A program made the translations under genes and the position numbers. From contig CAKOOK010000004.1 in assembly GCA_934098515.1 (NCBI GenBank), forward strand, positions 3,483-67,482: a stretch of DNA of 64,000 nt, in the 5' to 3' direction. Position 1 is the stretch's first letter; every line of letters begins with the position of its first letter. This stretch comes from an uncultured Bacilli bacterium. Lineage in GTDB: Bacteria; Bacillota_I; Bacilli_A; RF39; UBA660. The notes under the pieces were generated by a model. The model made no database searches, had not been told where the DNA came from, and saw nothing but the letters and a program-made list of their open reading frames with translations. Of this stretch, positions 5,392 through 42,141 are shown piece after piece.

Positions 5392-5499
5392 TTCTCCTTG
5401 CTAGTAAATTATATTTAACTTGTACTAAAATATTCTATAAAATAGTTATAAAAGTTAAATATAGTGCTCTTAAAAATATTCTAAATAACATAATTTTTA

Positions 5500-5528
5500 C
5501 CTCCCTTCATTAGTTATTGTTGTAAGAA
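5500..5528. repeat. left arm of a perfect 29-bp inverted repeat (imperfect extension to ~5550)
   Basis: cctcccttcattagttattgttgtaagaa is the exact reverse complement of 6329..6357. Confidence 0.95.
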
Positions 5529-5551
5529 GAATCTCTATTTCCTTTTTTTTA

Positions 5552-5580
5552 TTGAAATATTTTTATTATTTAGATAAAAT
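5552..5580 (+). promoter_or_regulatory. sigmaA-type promoter inside the IR-bounded segment
   Basis: TTGAAA (5552..5557), 17-nt spacer, TAAAAT (5575..5580). Confidence 0.55.
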
Positions 5581-5599
5581 TATTAGGAGGAGATTAGTT

Positions 5600-6274
5600 A
5601 TGGATAAGTTATGTTATATATTTTTGTACTTTGTGTTTTATTCTATGATCGGATATGTGTGTGAAGTATTTTATGTTTATTTAGGTGATAAGAAATGGGT
5701 TAATAGGGGTTTTTTACATGGACCTTATATTCCTATATATGGAAATGGAGCAATGATTGTTAGTTTAGCTCTTATGCATGTTAAGAAAGATTCTTTTATT
5801 ATATTTTTAGTTGGATTAGTTTTATGCTCACTTTTAGAGTATATTACTAGTTATGCTATGGAAAAGATATTTCATAATAGATGGTGGGATTATTCAGAAA
5901 GAAAATATAATTTAAATGGTAGAGTATGTTTACAAAATTCAGTTTTATTTGGGTTAGGATCAGTAGCCATTATTTATGTATTTAATCCATTATTTAATAA
6001 GTTATATAATGCGTTAGGTGCTAAGGCAATATTGTGTGTGTCTATTATTTTATTTGTTGTAATGTTAATAGATTTTTCTGTAAGTTTTTTTGAAGCTGTT
6101 AAAGTATCTAATATTGCTAGTCATTTGGATAAATTTATGGAGGAATTTGAAAAGAAGAAAGAGTCTACTAAACGTATTAAGATTAGACTTATGGAGGCAT
6201 ACCCATATTTAGTTAAGAGAAATTTTAGTTTTTTAGATAAAGTTAAAAAGTATAAAAAGAAGAGTAAAAATTAG
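5600..6274 (+). CDS. polytopic membrane protein (putative ABC-transporter type IV / CmpB-like family)
   Basis: Start at ATG 5600 behind the aggagg RBS. Motifs GPYIPIYGNGA and ...NRWWDYS...NGRVCL typical of that family; about 5-6 TM segments. Confidence 0.6.
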   Translation: MDKLCYIFLYFVFYSMIGYVCEVFYVYLGDKKWVNRGFLHGPYIPIYGNGAMIVSLALMHVKKDSFIIFLVGLVLCSLLEYITSYAMEKIFHNRWWDYSERKYNLNGRVCLQNSVLFGLGSVAIIYVFNPLFNKLYNALGAKAILCVSIILFVVMLIDFSVSFFEAVKVSNIASHLDKFMEEFEKKKESTKRIKIRLMEAYPYLVKRNFSFLDKVKKYKKKSKN

Positions 6275-6328
6275 TTAAATTAAAAAATAACTAATTTTTT
6301 TTAAAAATAAAAAAGGAAATCGGGGATG

Positions 6329-6357
6329 TTCTTACAACAATAACTAATGAAGGGAGG
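6329..6357. repeat. right arm of the perfect 29-bp inverted repeat; contains the RBS of the exporter gene
   Basis: ttcttacaacaataactaatgaagggagg is the reverse complement of 5500..5528. Confidence 0.95.
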
Positions 6358-6366
6358 AAAAGATGT

Positions 6367-9768: not shown

Positions 9769-10410
9769 ATGAGTAATAGTATATTAGAGGGATTAATTAA
9801 GGAAAAAGATTATACTTTTAAGAAGTTGCTTTTTAAGCTTATTAAGGACTTTGATTTATCTCTTGAAGAATTACTATTACTAGTATATTTTATTAATCAG
9901 GATAAGCCTGTATTTGATATTAAAAGGATATCTCTTATCACTTATTTAAGTAGTAATGAGATAATGACGGCTTTTTCTTCTTTAACTGGTAAAGGACTGG
10001 TGTCTATTAAAACTAGTAAGGAAGATGGTAAAATAACTGAAGTTATAGATATTACTAATACTTATAGAGCAATGGTTAGTGATATTAATATAAATATAAA
10101 AAAACAAGCTACAACTAATATTTATACTATATTTGAAAAGGAATTTGGTAGACCACTAAGTCCAGTTGAGTATGAAATTATTAAAGCATGGATTACTAAT
10201 GGTATTAGTGAAGAACTTATAAAAGGAGCATTGAAAGAGGCAGTATTTAATAATGTAAGGAACCTTAGATATATAGATAAGATTTTATCTGAATGGGAGA
10301 AGAAGGGTTTTAAATCAGTTGATGAGGTTGATTCTTATTTAAAAAAGAAGGAGTCAAATAATCCTAAACAGGAGTTGTTTGATTATAATTGGTTAGAGGA
10401 TGAAGAGTAG
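9769..10410 (+). CDS. dnaD: DnaD-domain replication initiation/membrane attachment protein
   Basis: C-terminal DnaD/DnaB-2 domain FEKEFGRPLSPVEYEIIKAWI...NLRYIDKILSEWEKKG; precedes nth as in other Bacillota. Confidence 0.8.
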   Translation: MSNSILEGLIKEKDYTFKKLLFKLIKDFDLSLEELLLLVYFINQDKPVFDIKRISLITYLSSNEIMTAFSSLTGKGLVSIKTSKEDGKITEVIDITNTYRAMVSDININIKKQATTNIYTIFEKEFGRPLSPVEYEIIKAWITNGISEELIKGALKEAVFNNVRNLRYIDKILSEWEKKGFKSVDEVDSYLKKKESNNPKQELFDYNWLEDEE

Positions 10411-20760: not shown

Positions 20761-21099
20761 ATGAATCTTATTGACAAAATTAATCAAAAACAAATTAAAC
20801 CAAACACTCCTGAATTTCGTGTTGGTGATACAGTAAGAGTTGATGTATGGATCAAAGAAGGTAAGAAAGAAAGAATCCAAGCTTTTGAAGGACTAGTAGT
20901 TTCTAAAAAAGGTGGTTCTGTTTCTGAAAGATTTACTGTAAGAAAGAAAAGTGGAAGTGTTGGCGTATCAAGAGTATTTGCTGTAAACAGCCCTGAAATT
21001 GACAAAATTACTGTTGTTAAAAAAGGTATGGTACGTAGAGCAAAACTTAACTTCTTAAAGGGTATGAAGAAAGAATACAAAGTTAAAGAAAGAAACTAA
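20761..21099 (+). CDS. rplS: 50S ribosomal protein L19
   Basis: FRVGDTVRV...KEGKKERIQAFEG.VI.KKG...ERFTVRK; follows rimM-trmD. Confidence 0.95.
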   Translation: MNLIDKINQKQIKPNTPEFRVGDTVRVDVWIKEGKKERIQAFEGLVVSKKGGSVSERFTVRKKSGSVGVSRVFAVNSPEIDKITVVKKGMVRRAKLNFLKGMKKEYKVKERN

Positions 21100-21127
21100 G
21101 TTAGGATTAAATTCCTAGCTTTTTTTG

Positions 21128-21156
21128 TTTACAAAAAGACTATCATGTTTTATAAT
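21128..21156 (+). promoter_or_regulatory. sigmaA-type promoter of variable-protein paralog 1
   Basis: TTTACA (21128..21133), 17 nt, TATAAT (21151..21156). Confidence 0.5.
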
Positions 21157-21181: not shown

Positions 21182-22726
21182 ATGGATAAACAATTAAAAA
21201 AAATATATTTATATATAGGAATATTTGTTGCAATAATCTTTATTGGAGCAACATATGCATTCTTTACTGCCGGAATGAGTTCTGAAACAAGCACCACAGT
21301 AAGAGCAGATGCCGGAACAATGAAAATAACTTATGATGGAGGAAAAGATATAAATCTAGCTGGAATATATCCTAAAGATGATGTATGGGCTACAAAAACT
21401 ATAACTGTAACTGGTAATAATACAACTGATGCACAGATGTATTATAAGTTAACTTTAATAGTAGACTCAAATACATTTAAAACAGATGATCCATTACAAT
21501 ATGAATTAGTAAGTACTAATACAAGTACTAATGGAGAAATAATCCCAAATATATCTAAAAAAGATATAACTGGAACATCTATTGAACTAGGTAGTGGACA
21601 CTTTGTAAAAGCAAATAATGCAAGTCATACATATCTATTAAAGATATATTATCCTAAAAAGGCAACTAGTCAAAATGCAAATCAAGGAGCAGCATTTAGT
21701 GCTCATGTAGAGATAACAAGTGCTAAAGCACCTAAAACTAATGGGAAATTATCAGAATTAGTATTATATAATAATGAAGTTAAAGCTCCAATTACAACAC
21801 CAGGAGCAGCAATATCTACTGCTGATGAAGCACTTTTAGCAAGTGCAGAAGATGATTATGGAACTTCTTATTATTTTAGAGGCGCTGTAACAAATAACTA
21901 TGTAGAATTTGCTAATAAATGCTGGAGAATAGTTAGAGTTGGAGGAGATGGCTCTGTAAAACTTATCTTACACAATGATAATACTGCAGGAGCTGCTAAT
22001 CCTTGTGATGCTGCAAATAATAGTACTAGTGCAGCATTTGCTAGATACAATGGAACAACATATATAAGTGCATTTAATACAAATTATAATGATAATGCAT
22101 ATGTTGGATTTAAGTATGGCACTGCTGGAGCTAGTGATTATGCAACTACTCATGCTAACATAAATAATAGTACAATACTAACTAATTTAGAAACTTGGTA
22201 TGATAATAATCTAAAAATATATGAAAGCGTAATAGATGATAATGTATGGTGTAATGATAAAACAAATGTAACAGATACAACACATGATCCTTGGGGTTGG
22301 TCACCAAATGGTTTGGGTTATGCTAAGAATCTAACTTATTATGGTGCTACACAAAGATTAGTAAGTGCAGGTGCTAGTGCTGGTGGCACGGGTCCAAGTT
22401 TAAAATGTAATGGAGAATTAAGTAAAATAAATTCAAAAATAGGATTAATAACTGCTGATGAATTAGCATATGCAGGATATGCTTATAGTCAAGTTAATAC
22501 TACAACATATTTACAAGAAAATGCTACAGATACTTATTGGTGGTCTTTGTCTCCTATCGGCTTCTATGGCAGCCGTGCTCGCGTTTGGCTCGTTGTCGGC
22601 AGCCTTGGCCGCTTCGATCGCAGCGACGTGGTTGGCACTGACGCGGTTCGTCCTTCGATTTCTCTTAAGTCGACGACCAACGTAACCGGTGAAGGAACCA
22701 GTGATAAACCTTTTGTTGTAGATTAA
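21182..22726 (+). CDS. secreted/surface protein paralog 1 with C-terminal hypervariable lectin-like module (candidate DGR target)
   Basis: ATG 21182 behind the aggaga RBS. N-terminal signal/anchor IGIFVAIIFIGATYAFFTAG...SSETS resembles TasA/camelysin-type signals. The C-terminal ~315 aa is paralogous to 38562..39854 and ends ...YWWSLSP-[31 variable aa]-RPSISLKSTTNVTG. Confidence 0.8.
   Translation: MDKQLKKIYLYIGIFVAIIFIGATYAFFTAGMSSETSTTVRADAGTMKITYDGGKDINLAGIYPKDDVWATKTITVTGNNTTDAQMYYKLTLIVDSNTFKTDDPLQYELVSTNTSTNGEIIPNISKKDITGTSIELGSGHFVKANNASHTYLLKIYYPKKATSQNANQGAAFSAHVEITSAKAPKTNGKLSELVLYNNEVKAPITTPGAAISTADEALLASAEDDYGTSYYFRGAVTNNYVEFANKCWRIVRVGGDGSVKLILHNDNTAGAANPCDAANNSTSAAFARYNGTTYISAFNTNYNDNAYVGFKYGTAGASDYATTHANINNSTILTNLETWYDNNLKIYESVIDDNVWCNDKTNVTDTTHDPWGWSPNGLGYAKNLTYYGATQRLVSAGASAGGTGPSLKCNGELSKINSKIGLITADELAYAGYAYSQVNTTTYLQENATDTYWWSLSPIGFYGSRARVWLVVGSLGRFDRSDVVGTDAVRPSISLKSTTNVTGEGTSDKPFVVD
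22556..22648 (+). other. hypervariable, GC-rich, A-depleted 93-nt core (VR-like) of paralog 1
   Basis: Hand count: 59/93 G+C and 9 A. 41/93 mismatches to 39684..39776, then 42 identical nt (22649..22690). Confidence 0.75.
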
Positions 22727-23969: not shown

Positions 23970-24033
23970 ATAATCTTCTTTTTTTTGTGAGTTACATGTG
24001 ATATACTAATTGTATATGATAGGGGAGGCTAGT

Positions 24034-24345
24034 ATGAGTAAGAAAGGGCAAGCACTTATTGAGTTTATTTTGATTATGCCGGTTATGGTTTATCTTATAT
24101 TGGTGTTTGTGGATTTTTCTTTGATACTAAGTACTAAGAATAAGTTAGAGAATAATGTTAGTAATTTAGTTATGGAGTATAAGGAAACGGGCTTATGCCC
24201 TGAAGGGGCTTTGTGTGAATCTAGTGATAAGTATGAAAAGATTGCTCTTAGAGAGAAATATGTTCCTAAAACTCCTGGTCTAAGTTTAATCCTTAAAGAA
24301 CCTTATTATATTAAAAGTGAAAGAGTGGTTTTAAAGGATGAATAA
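24034..24345 (+). CDS. TadE-like pseudopilin/pilus assembly protein
   Basis: N-terminus KKGQALIEFILIMPVMVYLIL (G/xxxxEF-type TadE motif). First gene of the Tad-like operon; extended -10 tgatatact upstream. Confidence 0.6.
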   Translation: MSKKGQALIEFILIMPVMVYLILVFVDFSLILSTKNKLENNVSNLVMEYKETGLCPEGALCESSDKYEKIALREKYVPKTPGLSLILKEPYYIKSERVVLKDE

Positions 24346-24661
24346 AAAAGCTCAGGCACTTGCACTTTTTATTACGATAATTCCAGTTATATTCATTGTT
24401 ATTATCTTTGTTTATGAGTCTGGTGTATTTGTAAATGAGAAAAATCGTGTTCTAGGTGTTCTTGATAGTACAGTTGAAGAAGCTAAGAGATATGATTTAA
24501 GTGATGATGAGATAATAGATTTATTAAATAAAAATAGTATTCGTAAAGAAGATATAGAGATAGTTAATCATGAAGGGATAAAGACAATTATTATTAAAGT
24601 TAAATATCCGGTAATAAATAAAACTTATGAGATAAAAACAAAGATGAAGGAGGCAGAATAA
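24338..24661 (+). CDS. small membrane-anchored protein of Tad-like operon (TadE/TadF-like, tentative)
   Basis: N-terminal hydrophobic segment KKAQALALFITIIPVIFIVIIFV; overlapping start. Confidence 0.4.
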   Translation: MNKKAQALALFITIIPVIFIVIIFVYESGVFVNEKNRVLGVLDSTVEEAKRYDLSDDEIIDLLNKNSIRKEDIEIVNHEGIKTIIIKVKYPVINKTYEIKTKMKEAE

Positions 24662-25404
24662 TGGCTAGAGGAACAAGTATAGCGGTCTTTGGTGCTAAGG
24701 GTGGAACTGGTAAGACTATTTTTGCACTTAATTTGGCTGGTGCTATGTCTAAGCTTGATAAGAAATGTTTGATTATTGATGCTGATCTTTATTCAGGACA
24801 AATAGATTGTGCTCTTAATAAGAAACCAAAAAAAGATATATATAATTTTGCAGATGATTATAGTAATAATCGTTATAAAGATTTTGAAGATTATGTTACG
24901 GTTTATAATAAAAATATTTCTTTTATTGGGGCTCCTACTGATCCTAGAAGAGCTAATAAGATTGATCCTAAGTATTTAAGTATAATTTTAGATAAGGCTC
25001 TTTTTAAGTATGATTTTGTTATATTTGATATGTCACATATATTAAATGAGGTTAATGTTAATATTTTGGATATGGTTGATAAGATTTTACTTGTTACGAC
25101 TAATGATCCACTAGATTTAAAGAATTTAAAGACAGTTCTAAGTTTATTTAAGGATAGTAGTATAAATAAGTATAAGGTTATTTTAAATGATTCAGTGGCA
25201 AATAATCGTGATTATTTTTCTTTATATGATTTAAAGGTGATTATTGATAATAATATTGATTATATTATAAGTAATAAGTTTTATGTACCTAATATGGATG
25301 CTTATGTGTTTGATGGGAAGATTTTTACTCTTGAGGCTAGAAAGTATCCTGATGAGGATGTGTTTAATTTGATTATTAAGGATGCAGGTGGTAAAGATGA
25401 GTAA
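24661..25404 (+). CDS. CpaE/TadZ-like ParA/MinD-family ATPase
   Basis: Deviant Walker A FGAKGGTGKT; position upstream of the CpaF-like ATPase. Confidence 0.75.
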   Translation: MARGTSIAVFGAKGGTGKTIFALNLAGAMSKLDKKCLIIDADLYSGQIDCALNKKPKKDIYNFADDYSNNRYKDFEDYVTVYNKNISFIGAPTDPRRANKIDPKYLSIILDKALFKYDFVIFDMSHILNEVNVNILDMVDKILLVTTNDPLDLKNLKTVLSLFKDSSINKYKVILNDSVANNRDYFSLYDLKVIIDNNIDYIISNKFYVPNMDAYVFDGKIFTLEARKYPDEDVFNLIIKDAGGKDE

Positions 25405-26716
25405 AAGCTTAACTGAGAATTTTGATTTTAAGCCAATATATAATGCTGAGGATAGTATAGTTAGTGATTATGAGGTATTTAAAGATAAGAAGTTACTTGA
25501 TAATCTTAGAAAGATAATTATTGAGGATTTGATTGATAAGGAGATACCTACTAATAAGGAGTTAAGTGAGTTTGTTAATGAGGAGATTGATAGGTGTTTA
25601 GAGGGATATGATTTAACTAATTTGGAGAGAAATCATATATTTAATTTGATTGAATCAGAGATAAATGGTTATGGACCGATTACTGAGCTTTTAAATGATC
25701 CTAATGTTACAGAGATTATGGTTAATGGACCTAGTGAGGTTTATGTAGAGATTGATGGTAAGTTAGTTAAGGATACTAGTGTTTCTTTTATTAATGATAA
25801 TCACATAGAGCGTACTATTCAAAGGCTTATTCAGCCTCTAGGAAGAACTATTGATAGTTCTAATCCTATGGTAGATTCTAGGCTTAAGGATGGGTCAAGA
25901 ATTAATGCGGTATTGCCTCCTTTAAGTGTAAATGGGCCGGTTATTACTATACGTAAGTTTAAGCATAATATGACTAAGGTAGAGGATTTGCTTAGAGTTG
26001 GTACTATGACTACTGATATGGCTAAATTTTTAGAGGCGTGTGTTAGAGGAAAACTTAATATTATTGTTTGTGGTGGAACTGGTTCTGGTAAGACGACTCT
26101 TTTAAATATTATAAGTGGTTTTATTGGAAATGATGAACGTATTATTACAATAGAGGATGCTGCTGAGTTAAAGTTAGAACAGGAACATGTTATATCGCTT
26201 GAAACAAGAACTGCTAATTATAATAAGGGGAGTGTTGTTACTGTTAGAGATTTGGTTATTAATGCTCTTCGTATGAGGCCAGATAGAATAATTGTTGGAG
26301 AATGTCGTGGTAAAGAGGCTTTTGATATGTTACAAGCAATGAATACTGGACATGATGGATCACTTACTACGTTACATGCTAATAGTCCAGAAGATGCTTT
26401 AAATAGATTAGAGACTTTAGTGCTTATGAGTGGTATTGATATTCCAATTAAAGCAGTTAGGGAATATATTGAAAATGCAATAAATATTGTTGTAAATATT
26501 CAAAGAATGCATGATGGTAAAAGAAAAATAACTTCTATATGTGAAGTTGATGGGTTTGATAAAGATATGATTAAACTTATTCCTATATTTGAGTTTGTTC
26601 AAATGGGACTTACAGATACTGGTGAGGAAAGAGGAGAGTTTACTTGTAAGAATAAAAAACCTAATGTTGCTAAATTACTTAAATCAAGGGGAATTAAATT
26701 AGATATGCTTAAATAG
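25397..26716 (+). CDS. tadA: CpaF/TadA-type secretion ATPase (type II/IV secretion NTPase family)
   Basis: Walker [10 protein letters not shown], Asp box ITIEDAAEL, Walker [13 protein letters not shown], His box [13 protein letters not shown]. Confidence 0.9.
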
Positions 26717-26730
26717 AAAGGAGTACTTTT

Positions 26731-27729
26731 ATGGATAAGATATTAAAACTTGCTATATTTATAAGTGCGATTATTTTACTTTTAGTAATTGCTATTTATG
26801 AAATTTTAAAGATTAGAAGAACGATTAAAATAGCTAATAGAATAGATAAGTTTACTCTTAAGGTTCCAGGTAATAGTGAACCAACTATTGGCGATGATTT
26901 TAATAAAAGTGTTAATGCTTTAATTAGTAAGATGAGTAGTATTTTATCTAGAAGTGCATACTTTACTAAAAGAGCATGTAAATATGATAAGTATGTTACG
27001 ATAAAGAAGAATTCTAATTATAAGTTTGATGTTTATAGTATTAAGATTTTAATTAGTATTTTGGTTTTTATAATATATACTTTAACTTCTGTTTTAAATA
27101 GAACTTTTGAGTTACCACTTGGATTAGTTTTTTTGGTACTGGGATATTTTGTTACAGATATTTATTTGGAGATTTTAAATCAAATTAGAATAAAGAATAT
27201 TGAAGGTGATTTGCTTAAAGCAATTATTATTATGAATAATGCTTTTAAGTCAGGGTTAAATATTACTAATGCGATTGATGTTGTTATAAATGATTTAGAT
27301 GGTCCAGTAAAGGATGAGTTTATGCTTATTAAGAAAGATTTATCTAGTGGTATAGATACATCTGAGGCTTTTAATCGTTTTTATAGGAGAGTAAGGTTAG
27401 AAGATGCTCAGTATATATCTAGTAGTTTAAGTATTTTAAATGTTACTGGAGGTAATATTACATTTATTTTTTCAAATATTGAGGAGGCTTTAACTAATAA
27501 GAAGAGGCTTAAGGATGAACTTAAAGCGATGACAGCATCTAGTATGGTTGTTTATCGAATTCTTACTTTTATGCCATTTATATTAATTTTTATTATTTTA
27601 ATGCTTAACAAGGATTATTTTAATCCATTATTTAATAATGTATTAGGTATATTTGCAATTGTTTTGGTTCTTGTTCTTTATACAATATATATCTTTGTTA
27701 TTAGAAAGATTCTTAAGGTGGAGTTATGA
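26731..27729 (+). CDS. tadB: TadB-like (type II secretion system F family) membrane protein
   Basis: T2SSF-like domain with flanking TM segments; operon position. Confidence 0.7.
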   Translation: MDKILKLAIFISAIILLLVIAIYEILKIRRTIKIANRIDKFTLKVPGNSEPTIGDDFNKSVNALISKMSSILSRSAYFTKRACKYDKYVTIKKNSNYKFDVYSIKILISILVFIIYTLTSVLNRTFELPLGLVFLVLGYFVTDIYLEILNQIRIKNIEGDLLKAIIIMNNAFKSGLNITNAIDVVINDLDGPVKDEFMLIKKDLSSGIDTSEAFNRFYRRVRLEDAQYISSSLSILNVTGGNITFIFSNIEEALTNKKRLKDELKAMTASSMVVYRILTFMPFILIFIILMLNKDYFNPLFNNVLGIFAIVLVLVLYTIYIFVIRKILKVEL

Positions 27730-28427
27730 GAAGTGTTACATTAAAATTATTTAGTAATAAAACTATTTCAAGGTTTAAGAAGAAAAGTATGGCTTTAGGA
27801 ATTAAGAATAAGAGTTCTTATGTAAGTGATTTAAGTTTATATCTTTTGATAATTATTATTGCTTTTGTTGTTAGTATCATGTTTTGTTATCATAGGTTTT
27901 ATCTTATAATATTATTACCAATTGGAGCAGCTTTGCTATTTGAGTTTTTGTATTATGATGTAAGACTTGCTAAGAGAAGAGCACTTCTAAATAAGCAGGC
28001 GTTATTCTTTTTTCAAATTTTAAGTTTGACTTTGGAGTCTGGTAATAATTTAAAGGGTGCTATTGAGCTTACTACGTCAAGTATATCTAATGATTTATCT
28101 GATGAATTTAAGAAAGCACTTAGTGATATGAGGATGGGTAGTACAATGAATGAAGCATTACTAGATTTAGAGAAAAGAATTCCTAGTGAGGTAATTACTA
28201 ATATTATATTAAATTTAACTGAGTCTAATGTTTATGGTAGTGATATGATTAAGAGTCTTAATACTCAGATAGATTATTTAAATAATAAACTTGTATTAAG
28301 TGTTAGGGAACAAATTAATAAGATGCCAATTAAGATAAGTGTAGTTAGTGTTCTATTATTTATTCCAATAATTTTACTTATTATTTTATCGCCACTTATT
28401 ATAGAGTTAATTGGATTGTCAAATTAA
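27726..28427 (+). CDS. tadC: TadC-like (type II secretion system F family) membrane protein
   Basis: T2SSF-like domain with TM segments at both ends; overlapping start with the tadB-like gene. Confidence 0.65.
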   Translation: MRSVTLKLFSNKTISRFKKKSMALGIKNKSSYVSDLSLYLLIIIIAFVVSIMFCYHRFYLIILLPIGAALLFEFLYYDVRLAKRRALLNKQALFFFQILSLTLESGNNLKGAIELTTSSISNDLSDEFKKALSDMRMGSTMNEALLDLEKRIPSEVITNIILNLTESNVYGSDMIKSLNTQIDYLNNKLVLSVREQINKMPIKISVVSVLLFIPIILLIILSPLIIELIGLSN

Positions 28428-33972: not shown

Positions 33973-36507
33973 ATGAAAAGAAGCGACGTAGATTATAATG
34001 AATTGTCTCCAATGATGAGACAGTATATGGATATAAAAAAGAAGCATGAAGATGAATTGCTTTTCTACCGAATCGGAGACTTTTATGAATTGTTTTTTGA
34101 GGATGCCTTGGAAGCATCACATGCGTTAGAACTTACTTTAACTGGTAAAAATGCTGGTTTAAAAGAAAGGGTACCAATGTGCGGAGTTCCCCATCATGCA
34201 TCTAAAGGTTATATTGAAAAAGCAGTTAATTTAGGATATAAGGTAGCAGTTTGTGAGCAGGTAGAAGATCCTAGATTTACTAAAGGCATGGTTAAAAGAG
34301 AAGTTATTAATGTAGTATCAAAAGGAACTCTTGTTGATTTAGATTTTTTATCAGCTTATGACTTTAACTTTATTGGAAGTATTTTAGATTTAGAATATGC
34401 TTATTTAATTACATATGCTGATATTAGTACGGGTAATATTTATAGTGAGCTTACTACTCATGATAAGAATACTCTTATAAGTAGAGTTTTAAACTTAAAT
34501 TTAAAAGAAGTAATACTTACAAATACTTTTGATTTAGAGCTTCTTAATACTTTAAAGAATAATTATAATTTAAGTATTAGTATATCTGATAAATTTTATG
34601 AGGAAAAAACTAAACTTACTGATAATATTACTGATGAAAGAGTTCGTGATGGAGTAAATCATTTACTTTATTATTTAGTAGTTAGAGAACTTAAAGATAT
34701 AACACATTTAAGTAATGTTATTATTATTGATAATAATGCTAGACTTAGAATGGATGTACATTCAGTAAGGAATTTAGAGATATTTGAGACTTTAAGACTT
34801 AAAGAAAGACAATATAGTTTAATATGGCTTATAGATAAGTGTAAGACCAGTATGGGTTCAAGAACACTTAAGGGATGGCTTATGAATCCTCTTAGAGATG
34901 AAAAAATGATTAATGGTAGGCTTGACTCTATAGATAAACTTAATAATGAATTTATTAAAAGAAGTGAGCTTACTAAACATCTATATGAAATATATGATTT
35001 AGAAAGATTATGTGGCAAAGTAATATGCGGGTCATTTAATGCTAGAGATGCACTTCAGATTAAGAAGAGTTTAGAGCACCTTCCTTATGTTAAAACGCTT
35101 GCTAGTGAAATTGGTTTAAATATAGATATTAATACTCATGAAGAGTTATATAAATTACTTGAGAGTTCTATTTATGAAGAAGCACCAATAACTTTAAAAG
35201 ATGGTTATTTAATTAAAGAAGGGTATAATAAAGAACTAGATGAACTTAAGGAAATTAGAAGTGGTGGCAAGTCTTTTATTGCTGGTATGGAGCAAGAGTT
35301 AAAAGAACAGTCTGGTATATCTAATTTAAAGGTTGGTTATAATAAAGTTTTTGGGTATTATATTGAAGTATCTAAAGGTAATGCTAGTAAAGTAAAAGAA
35401 GAGTTTGGTTGGATTAGAAAACAGACTTTAACTACGGGGGAGAGATATATTTCACCATTATTAAAAGAAAAAGAAGCATTAGTACTTAATGCTGAAGAAA
35501 GAATTATTGATTTAGAATATAACCTATTTATGGAAGTTAAAGAAGCAATAAAGAAGGAAGTACCTTTAATGCAAAAGACTGCTAGTGGTATTGGGGTAAT
35601 TGATGCTTTAACATCACTTAGTGTTGTAAGTGAAGAACAGAAATTTGTAAGACCGGTATTTAATAATAAACATGTTATAGATATTAAAGATGGTTTTCAT
35701 CCGGTAATAAATGCTCTTAATGAAAAAAATTATGTTAAAAATGGATGCATGATGGATGAAAATACAACAACCCTTCTAATAACTGGGCCTAATATGAGTG
35801 GTAAAAGTACTTATATGAGACAACTTGCTATTATTATAATACTTGCACAAATTGGTTCTTTCGTGCCAGCAAGTTTTGCAAATCTTCCTTTATTTGATGC
35901 AATATATACAAGAATAGGTGCTAGTGATGATCTAGTTAGTGGTGAGTCAACATTTATGGTTGAGATGAAGGAAGCAAATAATGCGATTAGTAATGCAACT
36001 GAAGACTCTCTTATCTTATTTGATGAACTAGGAAGAGGTACGGCAACATTTGATGGTATGAGTTTAGCAGCAGCAATTTTAAAGTATGCAACTAAACATA
36101 TTAAATGTAAGACTTTATTTAGTACACATTATCATGAACTTACTAGTTTAGATGAAACAATTCCAAGCATTAGAAATATTCATGTTAGTGCTGAAGAAGA
36201 TGATGGTAAGTTAGTGTTTTTGCATAAGATTAAAGAAGGCGCTGCAGATAAGAGTTATGGTGTGCATGTAGCAGCACTTGCGGGCATGCCAGAAGAGATA
36301 ATTAATGAGGCTAATTTAATTTTAAGTAAGTATGAAAATAAAGAAACGTCTCCTAAGATAGAACATGCTGAGCAGATTACTTTTAATTTAACAGAAGAAA
36401 AGAATGAATTGAAAGAATATTTAAAAGATATTGATCCGCTTAAACTTACACCAATTGAGGCTTTGATTAAATTAAATGAGCTTAAAGAAATATCTAGAAA
36501 ATCTTAA
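33973..36507 (+). CDS. mutS: DNA mismatch repair protein MutS
   Basis: N-terminal MMRQY...FYRIGDFYELF, Walker A GPNMSGKST, DELGRGT, STHYHEL. Confidence 0.95.
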   Translation: MKRSDVDYNELSPMMRQYMDIKKKHEDELLFYRIGDFYELFFEDALEASHALELTLTGKNAGLKERVPMCGVPHHASKGYIEKAVNLGYKVAVCEQVEDPRFTKGMVKREVINVVSKGTLVDLDFLSAYDFNFIGSILDLEYAYLITYADISTGNIYSELTTHDKNTLISRVLNLNLKEVILTNTFDLELLNTLKNNYNLSISISDKFYEEKTKLTDNITDERVRDGVNHLLYYLVVRELKDITHLSNVIIIDNNARLRMDVHSVRNLEIFETLRLKERQYSLIWLIDKCKTSMGSRTLKGWLMNPLRDEKMINGRLDSIDKLNNEFIKRSELTKHLYEIYDLERLCGKVICGSFNARDALQIKKSLEHLPYVKTLASEIGLNIDINTHEELYKLLESSIYEEAPITLKDGYLIKEGYNKELDELKEIRSGGKSFIAGMEQELKEQSGISNLKVGYNKVFGYYIEVSKGNASKVKEEFGWIRKQTLTTGERYISPLLKEKEALVLNAEERIIDLEYNLFMEVKEAIKKEVPLMQKTASGIGVIDALTSLSVVSEEQKFVRPVFNNKHVIDIKDGFHPVINALNEKNYVKNGCMMDENTTTLLITGPNMSGKSTYMRQLAIIIILAQIGSFVPASFANLPLFDAIYTRIGASDDLVSGESTFMVEMKEANNAISNATEDSLILFDELGRGTATFDGMSLAAAILKYATKHIKCKTLFSTHYHELTSLDETIPSIRNIHVSAEEDDGKLVFLHKIKEGAADKSYGVHVAALAGMPEEIINEANLILSKYENKETSPKIEHAEQITFNLTEEKNELKEYLKDIDPLKLTPIEALIKLNELKEISRKS

Positions 36508-36570
36508 AAAATGTATATCAAAAGTCTTAAAAAATGTATATCAAAATCGTTAAAAAATGTATATCGTATT
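36502..36570. repeat. three tandem 23-bp direct repeats immediately 3' of mutS and 5' of a TTGACA box
   Basis: tcttaaaaaatgtatatcaaaag / tcttaaaaaatgtatatcaaaat / cgttaaaaaatgtatatcgtatt. TTGACA at 36572..36577. Confidence 0.9.
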
Positions 36571-36634
36571 GTTTGACATAATGAAACATGATAAAATTAT
36601 TTATAGAAAAGAACCGTAGAAAGAGGTAATTAAA

Positions 36635-37027
36635 ATGACTAATAGAAGTAAATTAAGAGAAACCATAATGACTATTATTTACCAAATAACTTTATATAAA
36701 AAAAATAATATGGAGTATAACGTAGATGATGTTATTAAAGAAAATTTAGAGATAGATAATGAATTTGTTAAAGATATTGTTTATGGAGTTGTAACAAGTT
36801 TTGATGAACTTACTGATGAAGCAAATAAGTATCTTAAGGACTGGACGATAGATAGAATAGATGCTACTGGAGCAGCAATTCTTAGAATGGCTTTATATGA
36901 AATTAAATATACTGATACACCTAATGTAGTAGTAATTAATGAAGCAGTAGAGCTTGCTAAAAAGTATAGTGATGAAGAAGTTCGTAAGATGATTAATGCT
37001 GTTTTAGATAAGGTAATTTCTGAGTAA
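36635..37027 (+). CDS. nusB: transcription antitermination factor NusB
   Basis: Length and NusB-like sequence (LRMALYEI...NEAVELAKKY); followed by xseA-xseB. Confidence 0.9.
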   Translation: MTNRSKLRETIMTIIYQITLYKKNNMEYNVDDVIKENLEIDNEFVKDIVYGVVTSFDELTDEANKYLKDWTIDRIDATGAAILRMALYEIKYTDTPNVVVINEAVELAKKYSDEEVRKMINAVLDKVISE

Positions 37028-38292
37028 TGGAGAAAAGATATATTACTGTATCAACTTTAAATCGTTATTTAAAGAATAAGTTTGATACAGATCCGAATAT
37101 TCAAAGAGTATCTTTAAAGGGAGAAATATCTAATTTTAAGGGACATACGAGAGGCCATTTATACTTTACTTTAAAAGATGAAGAAGGAAGAATAAATGCG
37201 GTAATGTTCTCTTTTAATGCAAGTAAACTTACGTTTGTTCCAGAAGATGGGATGAAAGTATTAGTAACTGGTAGAGTATCCGTTTATCCACCAACTGGAT
37301 CATATCAAATTTATGTTGAAGAGATGGAAAGTGATGGACTGGGTAATCTTTATTTAATGTATGAAGCTTTAAAAAAAGAACTTGCTGAAAAAGGTTTATT
37401 TGATGCAGGACATAAAAAACAAATACCTAAATATCCTCATAGGATTGGTATAGTTACGGCCCCTACTGGGGCTGCCATTAAAGATATACTTAGTACTATT
37501 AAAAGAAGATATCCTATATGTGAGACAATTATCTTTCCATGTTTAGTACAAGGAGAACTTGCAAAAGATGATATTGTAAAAGCTATTAATGAAGCAGAAA
37601 AGTATGATTTAGATGTTCTTATTGTAGGCCGTGGTGGTGGTTCATATGAAGACTTGTGGGCTTTTAATGAGAAAGTTGTTGCTTATGCTATTTATAACTG
37701 CACAATTCCAGTAATAAGTGCAGTAGGGCATGAAATAGACTTTACGATAGCAGACTTTGTTGCAGATTTAAGAGCACCAACACCAACAGGAGCAGCTGAA
37801 ATGGCTGTACCAAACATGGCAGATTTATTTACATTCTTAGAACAAATTAAGATAAGATGCACAAGCACTATATCAAATAAGATTAATATTAATAAGAAGC
37901 ATTTATTGGATTTAAAAGATAATTATGTCTTAAAGAACCCTCTAGCAGTTTATGAAATAAAAGAGCAAAAACTATCTAGTTTAATTGATACATTAAATAG
38001 TACAATAACTAATAAATTAGCAAATGCTAAGTTAAGATATAGCCATATAAGGGAAAACTATATTTTAAATAATCCAGAAGAGTTATTAAAAAAGAAAAAG
38101 CATGATTATACACTTATTTTAAATAAATTAGAAATACTTAATCCAATTAGTATATTATCTAAAGGGTACTCTGTAGTATCAATAAATGATAAAACTATAA
38201 ATAGTACTGAAAATATATCTAAGGGAGATGTGTTAAATATTAAATTATATAAAGGAAGCTTAAAAGCAAAAGTAGAAAGTGTAGGTAAATAA
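37027..38292 (+). CDS. xseA: exodeoxyribonuclease VII large subunit
   Basis: OB-fold N-terminus, GIVTAPTGAAIKD, RGGGSYEDLWAFN. Confidence 0.95.
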   Translation: MEKRYITVSTLNRYLKNKFDTDPNIQRVSLKGEISNFKGHTRGHLYFTLKDEEGRINAVMFSFNASKLTFVPEDGMKVLVTGRVSVYPPTGSYQIYVEEMESDGLGNLYLMYEALKKELAEKGLFDAGHKKQIPKYPHRIGIVTAPTGAAIKDILSTIKRRYPICETIIFPCLVQGELAKDDIVKAINEAEKYDLDVLIVGRGGGSYEDLWAFNEKVVAYAIYNCTIPVISAVGHEIDFTIADFVADLRAPTPTGAAEMAVPNMADLFTFLEQIKIRCTSTISNKININKKHLLDLKDNYVLKNPLAVYEIKEQKLSSLIDTLNSTITNKLANAKLRYSHIRENYILNNPEELLKKKKHDYTLILNKLEILNPISILSKGYSVVSINDKTINSTENISKGDVLNIKLYKGSLKAKVESVGK

Positions 38293-38513
38293 TGAAAGAG
38301 AAAAAGTTTGAAGATATGTTAAGTGAATTAGAAACACTTGTAAAAAAATTAGAAAATGGAGATACTGATCTAGATACATCTATTGAGACATATCAAAAAG
38401 CAATGAAATTAGCAAAAGAGTGCGGAGATAAATTAAATAGTGCTGAAGAAGCAGTCAATAAAATTTTAAGCGAAGACGGAACCCTAAAAGATTTCCACAT
38501 TGAAAACGCTTGA
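38292..38513 (+). CDS. xseB: exodeoxyribonuclease VII small subunit
   Basis: 73 aa; FEDMLSELETLVKKLENGD..LDTSIETYQKAMKL. Confidence 0.9.
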   Translation: MKEKKFEDMLSELETLVKKLENGDTDLDTSIETYQKAMKLAKECGDKLNSAEEAVNKILSEDGTLKDFHIENA

Positions 38514-38538
38514 CACGGGGGGGGGGTTGTTATATACT
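38510..38538 (+). promoter_or_regulatory. consensus-like promoter of paralog 2 with a G10 homopolymer in the spacer
   Basis: TTGACA (38510..38515), 17-nt spacer c-G10-ttgtta (G run 38517..38526), TATACT (38533..38538). ATG at 38562. Confidence 0.6.
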
Positions 38539-38561
38539 AAAAGAGAAAGATAGAGGTATTT

Positions 38562-39854
38562 ATGAACAAAAAACTTCCGATAATTTCTCTTTTTTTTATG
38601 AGTATAGTTAGCATAATGTATTGGGCATTTAAACCAAAGGACGAATTATATGAGGCTAAATGGAATGCGCCAGACACAACTTTAGCAATTACGATCAATG
38701 GTGAAATTAGTACAACATTTCCAACAACAGATATGTACACTGGAACAGTAGAATGTACTACAGGAACAGGTAAAGTAGAATGGAATGGTACTAAATGGAT
38801 TCTTACAACAAGTGGAATAACTAAAGGAAGCACTAAATGCAATGTTATTTTTAAGCAAACTTTTAATGGTGTAATATTAGCAAAGAATGAAGTAAAGACT
38901 CCGTTTACAACACCAGGAGCAGCAGTATCTACTGCAAGTGAAGCATTACTTGCAGCTGCAGAAGATGATTATGGTACATCTTATTACTTTAGAGGTGCTG
39001 TAACAAATAACTATGTAGAGTTTGCTAATAAATGCTGGAGAATAGTAAGAGTTAGTGGAGATGGTTCAGTAAAACTTATCTTACATAATGACAATACAAC
39101 TGGAGTTGCTAATCCTTGTGATGCTGCAAATAATAGTGCTAGTGCAGCATTTGCAAGATACTCTGGTGAAACATATACAAGTGCATTTAACACAATTGTA
39201 AATGATAATGCTTATGTAGGATTTAAGTATGGAACACCAGGTTCAAATACATATGAAGCTACACATGCAAATACCAATAAAAGTACAATACTAACTAATT
39301 TAGAAGTTTGGTATAATAAGAATCTTAAAACATATGAAAAAGTAATAGCTGATACTGTATGGTGTAATGATAAAACAAATGTGACTGATACATCTTTTGA
39401 CCCATGGAATTATAGTAGTTATAGTAATGTAACTGGTTTAGGATATGCTAAAAATATAACATATTATGGTGCTACCCAAAGACTAGTAAGTAAAAGTAAT
39501 AGTGCTGGAGGCACTGGCCCAAGTTTGAAATGTAATGGAGAATTAAGTAAAATAAATTCAAAGGTAGGCTTAATAACAGCAGATGAACTAGCATTAGCAG
39601 GATATGCTTATGATTATTTTGAAAATACTACACCATATTTACAAGAAAATGCTACAGATGATTATTGGTGGTCCTTGTCGCCTGACAACTTCTTTGGTGG
39701 CTACGCTTACGTTTGGTGCGTTGGCATCAGATATGGCGTCTTCAGAGTCGAATACGTGAACCACGCCTACGGGCTTCGTCCTTCGATTTCTCTTAAGTCG
39801 ACGACCAACGTAACCGGTGATGGAACCAGTGAAAATCCATACGTAGTAAAATAG
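38562..39854 (+). CDS. secreted/surface protein paralog 2 with C-terminal hypervariable lectin-like module (candidate DGR target)
   Basis: N-terminal signal/anchor LPIISLFFMSIVSIMYWAF. From ~aa 110 it is paralogous to 21182..22726 and ends ...YWWSLSP-[31 variable aa]-RPSISLKSTTNVTG. Confidence 0.8.
   Translation: MNKKLPIISLFFMSIVSIMYWAFKPKDELYEAKWNAPDTTLAITINGEISTTFPTTDMYTGTVECTTGTGKVEWNGTKWILTTSGITKGSTKCNVIFKQTFNGVILAKNEVKTPFTTPGAAVSTASEALLAAAEDDYGTSYYFRGAVTNNYVEFANKCWRIVRVSGDGSVKLILHNDNTTGVANPCDAANNSASAAFARYSGETYTSAFNTIVNDNAYVGFKYGTPGSNTYEATHANTNKSTILTNLEVWYNKNLKTYEKVIADTVWCNDKTNVTDTSFDPWNYSSYSNVTGLGYAKNITYYGATQRLVSKSNSAGGTGPSLKCNGELSKINSKVGLITADELALAGYAYDYFENTTPYLQENATDDYWWSLSPDNFFGGYAYVWCVGIRYGVFRVEYVNHAYGLRPSISLKSTTNVTGDGTSENPYVVK
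39684..39776 (+). other. hypervariable 93-nt core (VR-like) of paralog 2
   Basis: Hand count: 48/93 G+C and 18 A. Rich in NAC codons (gac aac tac tac ... aac cac tac). Followed by a 42-nt block identical to paralog 1 (39777..39818). Confidence 0.75.
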
Positions 39855-39917
39855 AATCACAATTTGATAAAACTCCCTAAATATGCTATAATTGTAGTAA
39901 TTAAGGGGGTTTTTATT

Positions 39918-40826
39918 ATGGAGGTTATTAATTTATCTAGTAGGTCTTTTAAAGGGTTAAGGACTCTTGAATTACCTAATATTGTATATAATACTGAGGG
40001 TAAGATATATGTTTATGAGGATAAAGATAAGTGGAATAAGAGGATGCATTTAGTTAAGAGGCTATATATTAATAGTGGTCCTATATTTAGTAATAAGCTT
40101 GCGACTATAAATTCTTTGGTTGATTATGAAGAACAGATTGATATGCCTGAACTTGTTTATCCTGAAAAGTTACTTACTGTAGGTAGAGAAATAGTTGGGT
40201 TTACTATGCCTTATGTTCCATCTACTAATTTAAAAGAAATATTAACTAGTTCTAAGACTCCTGCTGAAGTTAAGATTAAGTATTTAAAGGATATTGGTAC
40301 TATTTTAGAGAAGATGGAAGAGGTTCGTAAGTATGCTGATCTTGAGGATTTTTATTTAAATGATTTACATGAGGGAAATTTTATAGTAGATGAAGAAGGT
40401 ACTTTAAGAGTAATTGATTTAGATTCTTGTAAGATTGCTGGTAATATGCCATTTTGTTCTAAGTATTTATCTAGAATGAATCCTTCTATTAGTAATCTTC
40501 CTGGTAAATATAAGTTAAGTAATTTTAGATGTTCTGGAGATATTATTCCTAATAAAGATACTGATTTGTATTGTTATATAATTACAGTTTTAAATACACT
40601 TTTTGGTAGAGAAACACATAGATTACCTCTTGAGACTTTTTATGATTATTTAGAGTATTTAAGAAGGATTGGTGTATCTACTGAACTTATTGATATAATT
40701 TCTGATATTTATTCAAATAAACCTAATACTAATCCTATGGAATTATTGGATGGGTTAGAGCCAGTATTTTATAAGTGTCATGAAAGTGTGTTTAAGAGTT
40801 TGACGAAGCAAAGAAGATGCCAATAG
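39918..40826 (+). CDS. protein-kinase-like fold protein (eukaryotic-like/APH-type catalytic loop)
   Basis: LNDLHEGNFIVDEEGTLRVIDLDS resembles the HxDLxxxN catalytic loop plus DxD/DFG metal site. ATG behind aaggggg; hairpin terminator at the stop. Confidence 0.55.
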   Translation: MEVINLSSRSFKGLRTLELPNIVYNTEGKIYVYEDKDKWNKRMHLVKRLYINSGPIFSNKLATINSLVDYEEQIDMPELVYPEKLLTVGREIVGFTMPYVPSTNLKEILTSSKTPAEVKIKYLKDIGTILEKMEEVRKYADLEDFYLNDLHEGNFIVDEEGTLRVIDLDSCKIAGNMPFCSKYLSRMNPSISNLPGKYKLSNFRCSGDIIPNKDTDLYCYIITVLNTLFGRETHRLPLETFYDYLEYLRRIGVSTELIDIISDIYSNKPNTNPMELLDGLEPVFYKCHESVFKSLTKQRRCQ

Positions 40827-40840
40827 TGGCATTTTTTCGT

Positions 40841-40890
40841 TTGCAAAACTTGTCAAAAAAAAGAAGTTTTGCAAATAGACTTGCAAAACT
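40841..40890. repeat. TTGCAAAACTT motif: 11-bp-stem palindrome plus a third direct copy overlapping the next promoter region
   Basis: ttgcaaaactt (40841..40851) pairs with aagttttgcaa (40864..40874). ttgcaaaact occurs again at 40881..40890. Confidence 0.8.
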
Positions 40891-40935
40891 TTACAAAAAT
40901 ATTTTTTTGTGTTATTATAAATTTGGTGATGAAAT

Positions 40936-42141
40936 ATGGTAATAAGAGAAGATTATTTAAAAAAAATGATTGATGCAAAAGATACTGATTTTATTAAGGT
41001 AGTAACTGGTGTTAGAAGAAGCGGAAAGTCAACACTATTATTAATGTTTAGAGATTATTTACTGAATAATGGTATAAGTGAAAATAATATTATACATATG
41101 AATTTTGAATCTGGTATATATGATGAAATTAATGATTACAAAAAATTATATAATTATGTAAAAGATAAAATAGATAAAAAAAAGACGTATTTATTGCTTG
41201 ATGAAATACAAAATGTTGATAAATGGGAGAAAGCAATAAATTCATTTAAAGTCGATTTTGATATTGATATTTATATAACTGGTTCAAATGCGTATTTATT
41301 ATCAAGTGAGTTATCTACTTTGCTATCAGGTAGATACATAGAAATAAAAATGTATCCATTATCTTTTAAGGAATTTTTAATTTTTAATGAATATACTCAT
41401 ACTAATTTAGAAGAAAAATTTAACGAATATTTAAAGTATGGTGGTTTACCTGCAGTAACATTGATAAAAGGCAATGACGAACTGGTTTTATCTTACCTAA
41501 GTGGAATTTATAATACAATTGTAAAAAAAGATATAATAGATAGAAATAATATAAAAGATTCAGTGCTTTTAGAAAATATAATAAAATATATATCTAACAA
41601 TATAGGAAGTCCTGTTTCTTCTACAAAAATTAGTGATTATTTAAACAGTAATAAAATAGTTGATAAATCAAATCATCAAACTATTGATAATTATTTAAGT
41701 ATGTTAGAAAAGTCTTTCATAATGTATAAAGCAGATCGAACTGATATAAAGAATAAATCTATTTTAAAAACACTTGGCAAATATTATATTTCTGATTTAG
41801 GAATAAGAAATATAATATTAGGTTTTAGAAATATAAATGAGGGACATTTACTTGAAAATGTTATTTATTTAGAATTATTAAGAAGAGGATATAAAGTTAA
41901 TATTGGTAAATTCGATGAATATGAAGTTGATTTTGTTGCTGAAAATCCAACTAGCGTGAAGTATTATCAAGTTACCCAAAGCTTAATAAATGAAGATGTT
42001 AAAACAAGGGAATTAAGAAGTTTGGAAAGCATATCAGATAATTATGAAAAAATTATTTTAACAATGGATAAGTCTATTAATAATGATATTAACGGAATAA
42101 AAATTGTTAATATAATAGATTGGTTATTAAAAGAAAATTAA
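40936..42141 (+). CDS. AAA-family ATPase (AAA_14 + DUF4143 architecture)
   Basis: Walker A GVRRSGKST, Walker B YLLLDEIQ, C-terminal DUF4143-like region. By-eye call. Confidence 0.75.
   Translation: MVIREDYLKKMIDAKDTDFIKVVTGVRRSGKSTLLLMFRDYLLNNGISENNIIHMNFESGIYDEINDYKKLYNYVKDKIDKKKTYLLLDEIQNVDKWEKAINSFKVDFDIDIYITGSNAYLLSSELSTLLSGRYIEIKMYPLSFKEFLIFNEYTHTNLEEKFNEYLKYGGLPAVTLIKGNDELVLSYLSGIYNTIVKKDIIDRNNIKDSVLLENIIKYISNNIGSPVSSTKISDYLNSNKIVDKSNHQTIDNYLSMLEKSFIMYKADRTDIKNKSILKTLGKYYISDLGIRNIILGFRNINEGHLLENVIYLELLRRGYKVNIGKFDEYEVDFVAENPTSVKYYQVTQSLINEDVKTRELRSLESISDNYEKIILTMDKSINNDINGIKIVNIIDWLLKEN

Follow-up and report, generated by a model that had tools for sequence, protein, structure and literature searches.

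A run of ten G nucleotides fills much of the space between the two hexamers of a promoter-like sequence in the DNA analysed here, a stretch of 64,000 nt (the window) from an uncultured gut Bacilli bacterium, and directly downstream lies a gene for a 430-aa protein. The question raised by this locus is whether the run is a passive part of the promoter or a hypermutable element through which the strength of the promoter is set. A preliminary description of the window had named the site as a candidate phase-variable promoter, a proposal that gains support from the recurrence of the same arrangement in related genomes, from length polymorphism of the run on invariant flanks, and from the invariance of family promoters that lack it. 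We conclude that the run is probably a slippage-driven contingency locus within the promoter spacer, which would tune the gene for the 430-aa protein.

The site reads ...gcTTGACAcGGGGGGGGGGttgttaTATACTaaaagagaaagatAGAGGTatttATG in the window sequence, and the coordinates of its elements are collected in Table 1. As the preliminary description had stated, the two hexamers are exactly 17 nt apart and the G run lies within their spacer, where it accounts for most of the 17 nt and is flanked by a single C (38516) and by TTGTTA (38527-38532). The stop codon of the upstream gene xseB (TGA, 38511-38513) is contained in the -35 hexamer. Judging from the position of the -10 hexamer, transcription would start at about 38545; a Shine-Dalgarno sequence, AGAGGT, follows at 38552-38557, and the ATG of the controlled gene is found 23 nt after the end of the -10 hexamer (in the fixed, that is tract-less, promoters of the same gene family this distance is 23-29 nt). 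An alternative register for the -10 element, TGnTATATA at 38528-38536, which would leave a spacer of 15 nt with G10, was considered and rejected: paralogous cassettes carry TATAAT, matching at 6/6 positions, in the register of TATACT, and the TG motif is absent from the T-type cassettes (TTATTAGTATAAT).

Table 1. Coordinates in the window of the promoter switch, the adjoining genes and the sites used for comparison
Feature	Position	Strand	Remark
xseB, exonuclease VII small subunit (Pfam Exonuc_VII_S)	38292..38513	+	Final gene of nusB-xseA-xseB
-35 hexamer TTGACA	38510..38515	+	Hexamer kept in 84/84 cassettes (TTGACA, rarely TAGACA or TGGACA)
Promoter spacer, 17 nt	38516..38532	+	C + G10 + TTGTTA
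G10 homopolymer, hypermutable element	38517..38526	+	Sole G or C run of at least 6 in the window; varies in length elsewhere
-10 hexamer TATACT	38533..38538	+	TATAAT (6/6) in the same register in many paralogous cassettes
Predicted short 5' leader	38545..38561	+	Leader ...AAGAGAAAGATAGAGGT... also conserved among the cassettes of paralogues and orthologues
Controlled gene, paralogue 2 (430 aa)	38562..39854	+	ORF directly downstream of the switch
DGR-type variable region (VR), G+C-rich	39667..39782	+	Paralogue differences at adenines of the template of locus L004
38-nt stretch 3' of the VR	39783..39820	+	Identical in both window paralogues (also 22655-22692)
Fixed promoter of paralogue 1, TTTACA-17 nt-TATAAT	21128..21156	+	Comparison promoter, without tract

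The G+C content of the window is ~28%, and with the observed base frequencies (G = 0.182, C = 0.101) the numbers of runs expected from composition in 64 kb are 0.0025 for G10 and 7e-6 for C10. The preliminary description had noticed no other long G/C homopolymer and had regarded a chance origin as very unlikely; the first statement holds down to a run length of 6, and the expected number of G10 runs bears out the second. The hexamers, by comparison with shuffled sequence, are less telling. In a consensus scan of positions 36400-41000 the site ranks best, with an 11/12 match, and the same segment contains 27 promoter-like sites compared with 27.6 in shuffles; since the count is no higher than in shuffles, the promoter match alone is weak evidence. 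What places the site above chance is that the same cassette, consisting of the -35 hexamer, the G tract, the -10 hexamer and the leader, recurs upstream of paralogues in many independent assemblies.

With regard to the upstream context, a scan of the intergenic region found no terminator on the + strand between xseB and the controlled gene, hence basal expression by read-through from nusB-xseAB is possible, and such read-through could blunt the OFF state at the window locus. An Rfam search returned no match anywhere in the window, the intergenic region included. A phage origin of the cassette was also considered and was rejected, as it had no match in IMG/VR viral contigs. Because xseB ends in TGA at its full Pfam length, the organism is taken to use the standard code 11 and not the Mycoplasma code 4. 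The gene mutS (33973-36507) is located two genes upstream of the switch, and over the window (1-64000) the GC skew is strongly positive and nearly all genes are on the + strand.

The recurrence of the cassette was assessed in related loci totalling ~936 kb, taken from assemblies of uncultured Bacilli/'Tenericutes' of the human gut; 52 of these loci were collected by protein homology and further ones by a pattern search of metagenome contigs and by identical-protein look-ups. In the 52 homology loci, every G/C run of at least 7 is found in the same cassette context, (A)TTAAC-TTGACA-C/T-Gn-TTGTTA-TATA(C/A)T or TTATTAG-TATAAT, followed by a short conserved leader and the ATG of a family gene. The same is true of the entire ~936 kb for intact G/C runs of at least 8, each of which lies in this cassette directly upstream of a family gene. 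Runs of at least 6 outside the cassette number nine (all G6-G7), besides one cassette copy (L117, G10) that a contig end cuts off. Altogether 84 cassette tracts were recorded, with G9 the most common length (42 tracts), followed by G10 (15), G8 (14), G7 (7), G6 (3), G11 (2) and G12 (1); short tracts are under-sampled and the distribution is clipped at its low end because the metagenome pattern required at least 6 G. All downstream ORFs that entered the comparison are members of one superfamily, with varied N-terminal domains, apart from three: two of the G6 matches have an unrelated context, and in one case the ORF is short and lipoprotein-like. Counted over species-representative genomes, an intact tract precedes ~13 of ~50 complete family genes. 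Most cassettes are situated in AT-rich intergenic regions; that of the window comes directly after a coding gene. A G tract is also seen within the coding sequence of family genes, at a DDGISYYFRG motif, where it is G7 in L057 (- strand, position 9772) and G6 in L018 (position 445), a difference that may represent a frameshifting tract (translational phase variation) or an assembly error.

The preliminary description had suggested comparing tract length across strains, and when this was done on public assemblies the lengths were found to differ on identical flanks. At the locus of the window, recognized by an identical XseB upstream, six independent contigs have G10 (the window, L109, L115, L116, L117 and L053, the last being the same as L110) and five have G9 (L111, L112, L113, L114 and L118). 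Between the window with G10 and L112 with G9 there are 0 mismatches in 1470 nt of flanking sequence (1140 nt upstream and 330 nt downstream). Similar pairs were found at other loci, including L084 (G9) and L101 (G10) with 0/800 nt flank mismatches, L081 (G10) and L083 (G11) with 1/800 nt, and L085 (G9) and L105 (G8) with 0/429 nt. An identical 428-aa protein, P0013, is encoded in three samples behind tracts of G11 (L125, at 90x coverage), G10 (L126) and G12 (L127), the flanks of which differ at 0/3580 and 1/2057 nt, and across assemblies this locus, downstream of NifU, displays G8, G9, G10, G11 and G12.

These comparisons use consensus assemblies, some of whose contigs have only 2-7x coverage and correspondingly less safe homopolymer lengths; assemblies at high coverage (30-90x) show G8, G9 and G11. 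As a negative control we used a paralogue located downstream of an MMPL gene (L119-L121 and L129-L135), which has a fixed TTGATT-17-TAAAAT promoter; in the 10 contigs, sampled in the same manner, the length of the promoter spacer is constant. The proteins of this paralogue, P0116, P0108 and P0094, are each identical, VR included, across their 4-16 contigs, and this copy appears, from its sequences, to be neither phase-variable nor actively diversified.

Strains that have the same promoter and identical upstream DNA can carry different gene bodies. The 23 substitutions that separate L053 from the window are confined to 160 nt (39167-39326), and L112 (434 aa; from 39092 on) and L114 (537 aa) part from the window sequence within the gene itself. 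The pattern resembles that of gene conversion or mosaic recombination between paralogues, which would constitute a third layer of variation. The possibility that the tract serves as the recombination breakpoint for this exchange was rejected, since the breakpoints are inside the gene and not at the tract in L112 (gene position 531), in L114 and in L053 (39167-39326).

The length of the tract is reflected in the length of the spacer, which varies from 12 to 19 nt in the 84 cassettes. Spacers with intact tracts are most often 16 nt long (50/84), followed by 17 nt (18/84) and 15 nt (10/84). The tract-less promoters of the family, each represented by its best promoter-like site, have a spacer of 17 nt in 17 of 23 cases and of 18 nt in another three. 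Paralogue 1 of the window provides one such promoter: it follows the rplS terminator (21098-21121) and is of the ordinary kind that the preliminary description had reported, with 17 nt between its hexamers and no tract. In another species, the orthologue downstream of xseB (L034) has the same leader and both hexamers (TTGACA, TATAAT), and its AT-rich spacer, 18 nt long, is unrelated; a paralogue, L036, likewise retains TTGACA and TATAAT with the tract replaced by an unrelated AT-rich spacer of 17 nt, and L122-L124, from one further species, are also without tract. That the tract-less promoters of L034 and L036 keep both hexamers backs the assignment of the hexamers in the window, and the use of the same hexamers by tract-less orthologues suggests that the promoter can work without the G's. 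Where the tract has been interrupted ('fossil' tracts), the spacer has become fixed at 17 nt in L001, L015 and L028 and at 19 nt in L128; a promoter simply 'locked ON' would not be expected at the length seen in L128. Being at the normal 17-nt spacing of the family, the G10 of the window is the predicted high-expression state. The mode of 16 nt among intact cassettes would mean either that most copies are in a reduced state or that the difference between 16 and 17 nt is small in this bacterium.

We propose that the tract makes this sigma-A-type promoter a simple-sequence contingency locus, in which G's would be gained or lost, reversibly, through slipped-strand mispairing at replication; with ten G's it exceeds the ~7 at which frequent slippage can be expected. 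The tract would thereby set the distance between TTGACA and TATACT at 15 nt with G8, 16 nt with G9, 17 nt with G10 and 18 nt with G11, altering the strength of the promoter for the controlled gene. The switch, if it behaves like porA, probably grades expression rather than turning it fully ON or OFF. Since each family member with a cassette has its own, each copy could, according to this proposal, be tuned independently and heritably; the same cassette would govern about a quarter of a large paralogous family that is itself a target of a diversity-generating retroelement (DGR).

Three other explanations of the G run were weighed against this mechanism. One holds that the tract is hypermutable but nearly neutral, either because read-through dominates or because a spacing anywhere between 15 and 18 nt barely matters, and it draws on the absence of a terminator between xseB and the gene, on a modal intact spacer of 16 and not 17 nt, and on the one interrupted tract that became fixed at 19 nt. 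We regard it as unlikely, given that a run so improbable at ~28% G+C persists at one and the same promoter position in dozens of family genes and several species, that 17 nt strongly predominates among the tract-less promoters of the family, and that like arrangements in porA and tp0126 do alter expression. Somewhat less probable still is the view of the run as a recognition or structural element, for example an operator for a regulator of the family, with its length variation incidental. Such an element would account for a tract that consists of G in every case, in an AT-rich genome where runs of A or T should form more readily, and for the joint conservation of the whole cassette, -35 hexamer through Shine-Dalgarno sequence; yet the same hexamers and leader occur with unrelated AT-rich spacers (L034, L036, L122-L124), a binding site is unlikely to tolerate lengths from 7 to 12, and no candidate regulator was identified. 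A regulator could nevertheless act jointly with length variation at the switch.

An origin of the run, or of its length differences, in sequencing or assembly (poly-G artefacts of two-colour chemistry, homopolymer miscalls) is very improbable. Indel errors of Illumina sequencing do increase in long homopolymers, and the compared contigs include the low-coverage ones noted above. The tract, however, is found in the interior of long contigs that come from numerous studies, assemblers and samples, its position in the promoter never changes, different lengths are also seen in the 30-90x assemblies, and the fixed promoters exhibit no such variation. The contingency locus in the promoter spacer remains the explanation that we favour.

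The gene downstream of the switch is one of two family members in the window. The N-terminus of its 430-aa product comprises a basic and hydrophobic signal/anchor segment, from which the protein would be membrane-anchored or secreted and may be located at the surface. Neither Pfam nor the PDB sequences gave a match to the 430-aa protein; some other members of the family carry DUF6273 (PF19789). Public metagenomes, chiefly those of the human gut, contain more than 7,000 of its relatives, and related genomes, labelled as uncultured 'Tenericutes' or Bacilli MAGs (UMGS1021, UMGS1372 and several Hadza MAGs), have many copies of the family per genome. An AlphaFold model, made from a 29-sequence alignment with the question of a C-type-lectin-like fold in mind, reached a pLDDT of 39.7, too low to be usable. 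Taken together, the N-terminal segment and the status of the family as a DGR target suggest an exposed ligand-binding protein.

Paralogue 1 (21182-22726) is 64% identical to paralogue 2, and most of the differences fall within the N-terminal domain and within a block of ~40 G+C-rich codons close to the C-terminus. The N-terminus of paralogue 1 resembles a signal peptide of the SipW/TasA type (...GATYAFFTAG). One gene past paralogue 1, after a gene for pyrimidine-nucleoside phosphorylase, begins a Tad/Flp-type pilus cluster (24010-28427) that consists of a TadE-like protein, a ParA/CpaE-like ATPase, a T2SSE ATPase and two T2SSF proteins.

The preliminary description had further proposed that the switch acts on top of sequence hypervariation of the same protein. 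At the level of the family this part of the proposal stands, in that a DGR signature is present. In L004 a family gene is followed by a template repeat (TR), all VR-TR differences fall on TR adenines, and the family gene is adjoined by a reverse transcriptase (RT) gene of the RVT_1 family and by a bAvd-like gene, the latter a weak Pfam match (E = 0.005) below the curated cut-off; it is because of this template with adenine-only differences, the bAvd-like gene and the RT that we consider the family a DGR target family. Homologues of the bAvd-like gene and the RT of L004 are present in L044. The complete DGR cassette beside the family gene occupies positions 1688-3846 of L004 (also 2260-3683 of L044), and that of L004 includes a small ORF with a match to MutS domain I (2062-2424), which is unusual inside a DGR.

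The VR of the window gene itself differs from paralogue 1 and from the TR of L004 at adenine positions of that foreign TR, which is suggestive only of DGR targeting. The 38-nt stretch that follows the VR (Table 1) resembles the 3' end of the VR of L004, in a part where the TR copy diverges, and is a candidate for an IMH-like DGR recognition element. A mismatch-tolerant scan of the window for a TR with both VRs matched only the two VRs, and tblastn searches with the RT and Avd of L004 detected nothing in the 64 kb. No ongoing DGR activity was seen at the window gene, the VR being identical in the three nearly identical strains that were compared, the window, L053 and L109.

Several features of the neighbourhood may be recorded here. 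In the syntenic contigs that reach far enough, L053 and L109-L111, the gene of the paralogue 2 type is followed by a 302-aa ORF (ATG at ~39918; 39864-40826 with its promoter), which has its own promoter, TTGATA-17-TATAAT with a TG motif (39864-39892), no Pfam match, and a kinase-like 'DLHEGNF...IDLD' motif. The intergenic region 40835-40900, upstream of a gene for an AAA_14/DUF4143 ATPase (40936-42141), contains repeated TTGCAAAAC motifs and an inverted repeat with a 12-bp stem (40864-40891), and could be an operator or a bidirectional terminator. Elsewhere in the window, a 65-nt inverted repeat (5493-5557 and 6300-6364, 85% complementary) flanks a 240-aa ORF (5552-6274), and the unit 5493-6364 may be a small mobile or invertible element.

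The kind of mechanism proposed here is already known as promoter-spacer phase variation of the porA, tp0126 and vlp type. What is new is its occurrence in an uncultured lineage of gut commensals and its use as a reusable cassette throughout a gene family. The coupling of a simple-sequence-repeat (SSR) promoter switch to DGR targets appears to be unreported; literature searches returned no paper that links the two and none that describes DGRs in RF39/Tenericutes gut bacteria. It is possible, and we offer this as a tentative reading, that variation has two layers in which one trans-acting DGR rewrites the tips of the paralogues and the poly-G tracts, acting as dimmers, choose the copies that each cell displays. 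In this scheme the DGR would act on at least a dozen paralogous surface proteins, at the tips that bind the ligand. If it is correct, DGR mutagenesis could try out new sequences in copies whose expression is low, and slippage could bring forward variants that succeed or silence those that have become targeted; it would also be, judging by the literature searches, the earliest example of DGR targets under SSR phase variation. Homopolymers in promoter spacers are textbook contingency loci of pathogens (Neisseria, Treponema, Mycoplasma), and here the arrangement is found in an abundant, uncultured lineage of gut commensals. If expression tracks tract length, the stochastic choice of paralogues would be combined with targeted hypermutation of the binding site, which bears on how DGR hosts handle many targets, on the evasion of phages or of immunity in the gut, and on strain heterogeneity that is masked by consensus metagenome assemblies. 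The tract lengths furthermore constitute a ready marker of within-host population dynamics.

The closest single-gene parallel is porA of Neisseria meningitidis, where a G homopolymer of ~9-11 likewise occupies the promoter spacer; the porA promoter is of the sigma-70 type, and its gene encodes a surface protein. Expression of porA is high with 11G, ~2-fold lower with 10G and ~13-fold lower with 9G (PMC3639595), with the optimum at 17 bp (PMC7864442). Unlike porA, which is a single gene of a Gram-negative pathogen, the cassette described here serves many paralogues in a low-G+C gut commensal, the proteins that it would control are DGR targets, and the effect of length on expression is a prediction.

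The tpr genes of Treponema pallidum resemble the present family in having poly-G tracts upstream of several paralogous putative surface proteins. The poly-G of tp0126 is located between -35 and -10 and is optimal at 17 nt, and the tracts of tp0126 and of the tpr genes, 7-11 long, set promoter activity and vary within and between isolates (PMC7864442). In tprL 9 G is the commonest length (PMC7864442), which is also the mode of the cassettes examined here. At the tprE, tprG and tprJ promoters a regulator acts together with length variation (PMC7864442). In contrast to the cassette, the tract of tprE, G, J and L is placed just upstream of the start site, with 8 or fewer G's being permissive; sequence variation in this unrelated spirochaete arises by gene conversion (tprK) and involves no retroelement.

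As a DGR target, the family is comparable to Mtd of the Bordetella phage and TvpA of Treponema denticola, with which its member L004 shares a C-terminal VR and differences confined to template adenines. In L004 the bAvd-like gene and the RT adjoin the target gene, as in the Mtd/TvpA type, whereas the family gene of the window is remote from any TR or RT.

Nearest in lineage is the vlp family of Mycoplasma hyorhinis, in which, as reportedly described by Yogev et al. in 1991 and by Citti & Wise in 1995, each gene has a poly-A tract in the spacer from -35 to -10; the tract length reportedly switches that gene independently, which gives rise to combinatorial expression. The vlp family and both of these references are cited in PMC4198240, which does not describe the tract itself. 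No relationship exists between the family studied here and the Vlp proteins, which are lipoproteins whose repeats vary in size; the vlp genes have poly-A where the cassette has poly-G, and they are without a DGR. What the two systems have in common is a multigene family of surface proteins, putative ones in the present case, within the Mollicutes/Bacilli lineage, whose promoters carry a homopolymer in the spacer.
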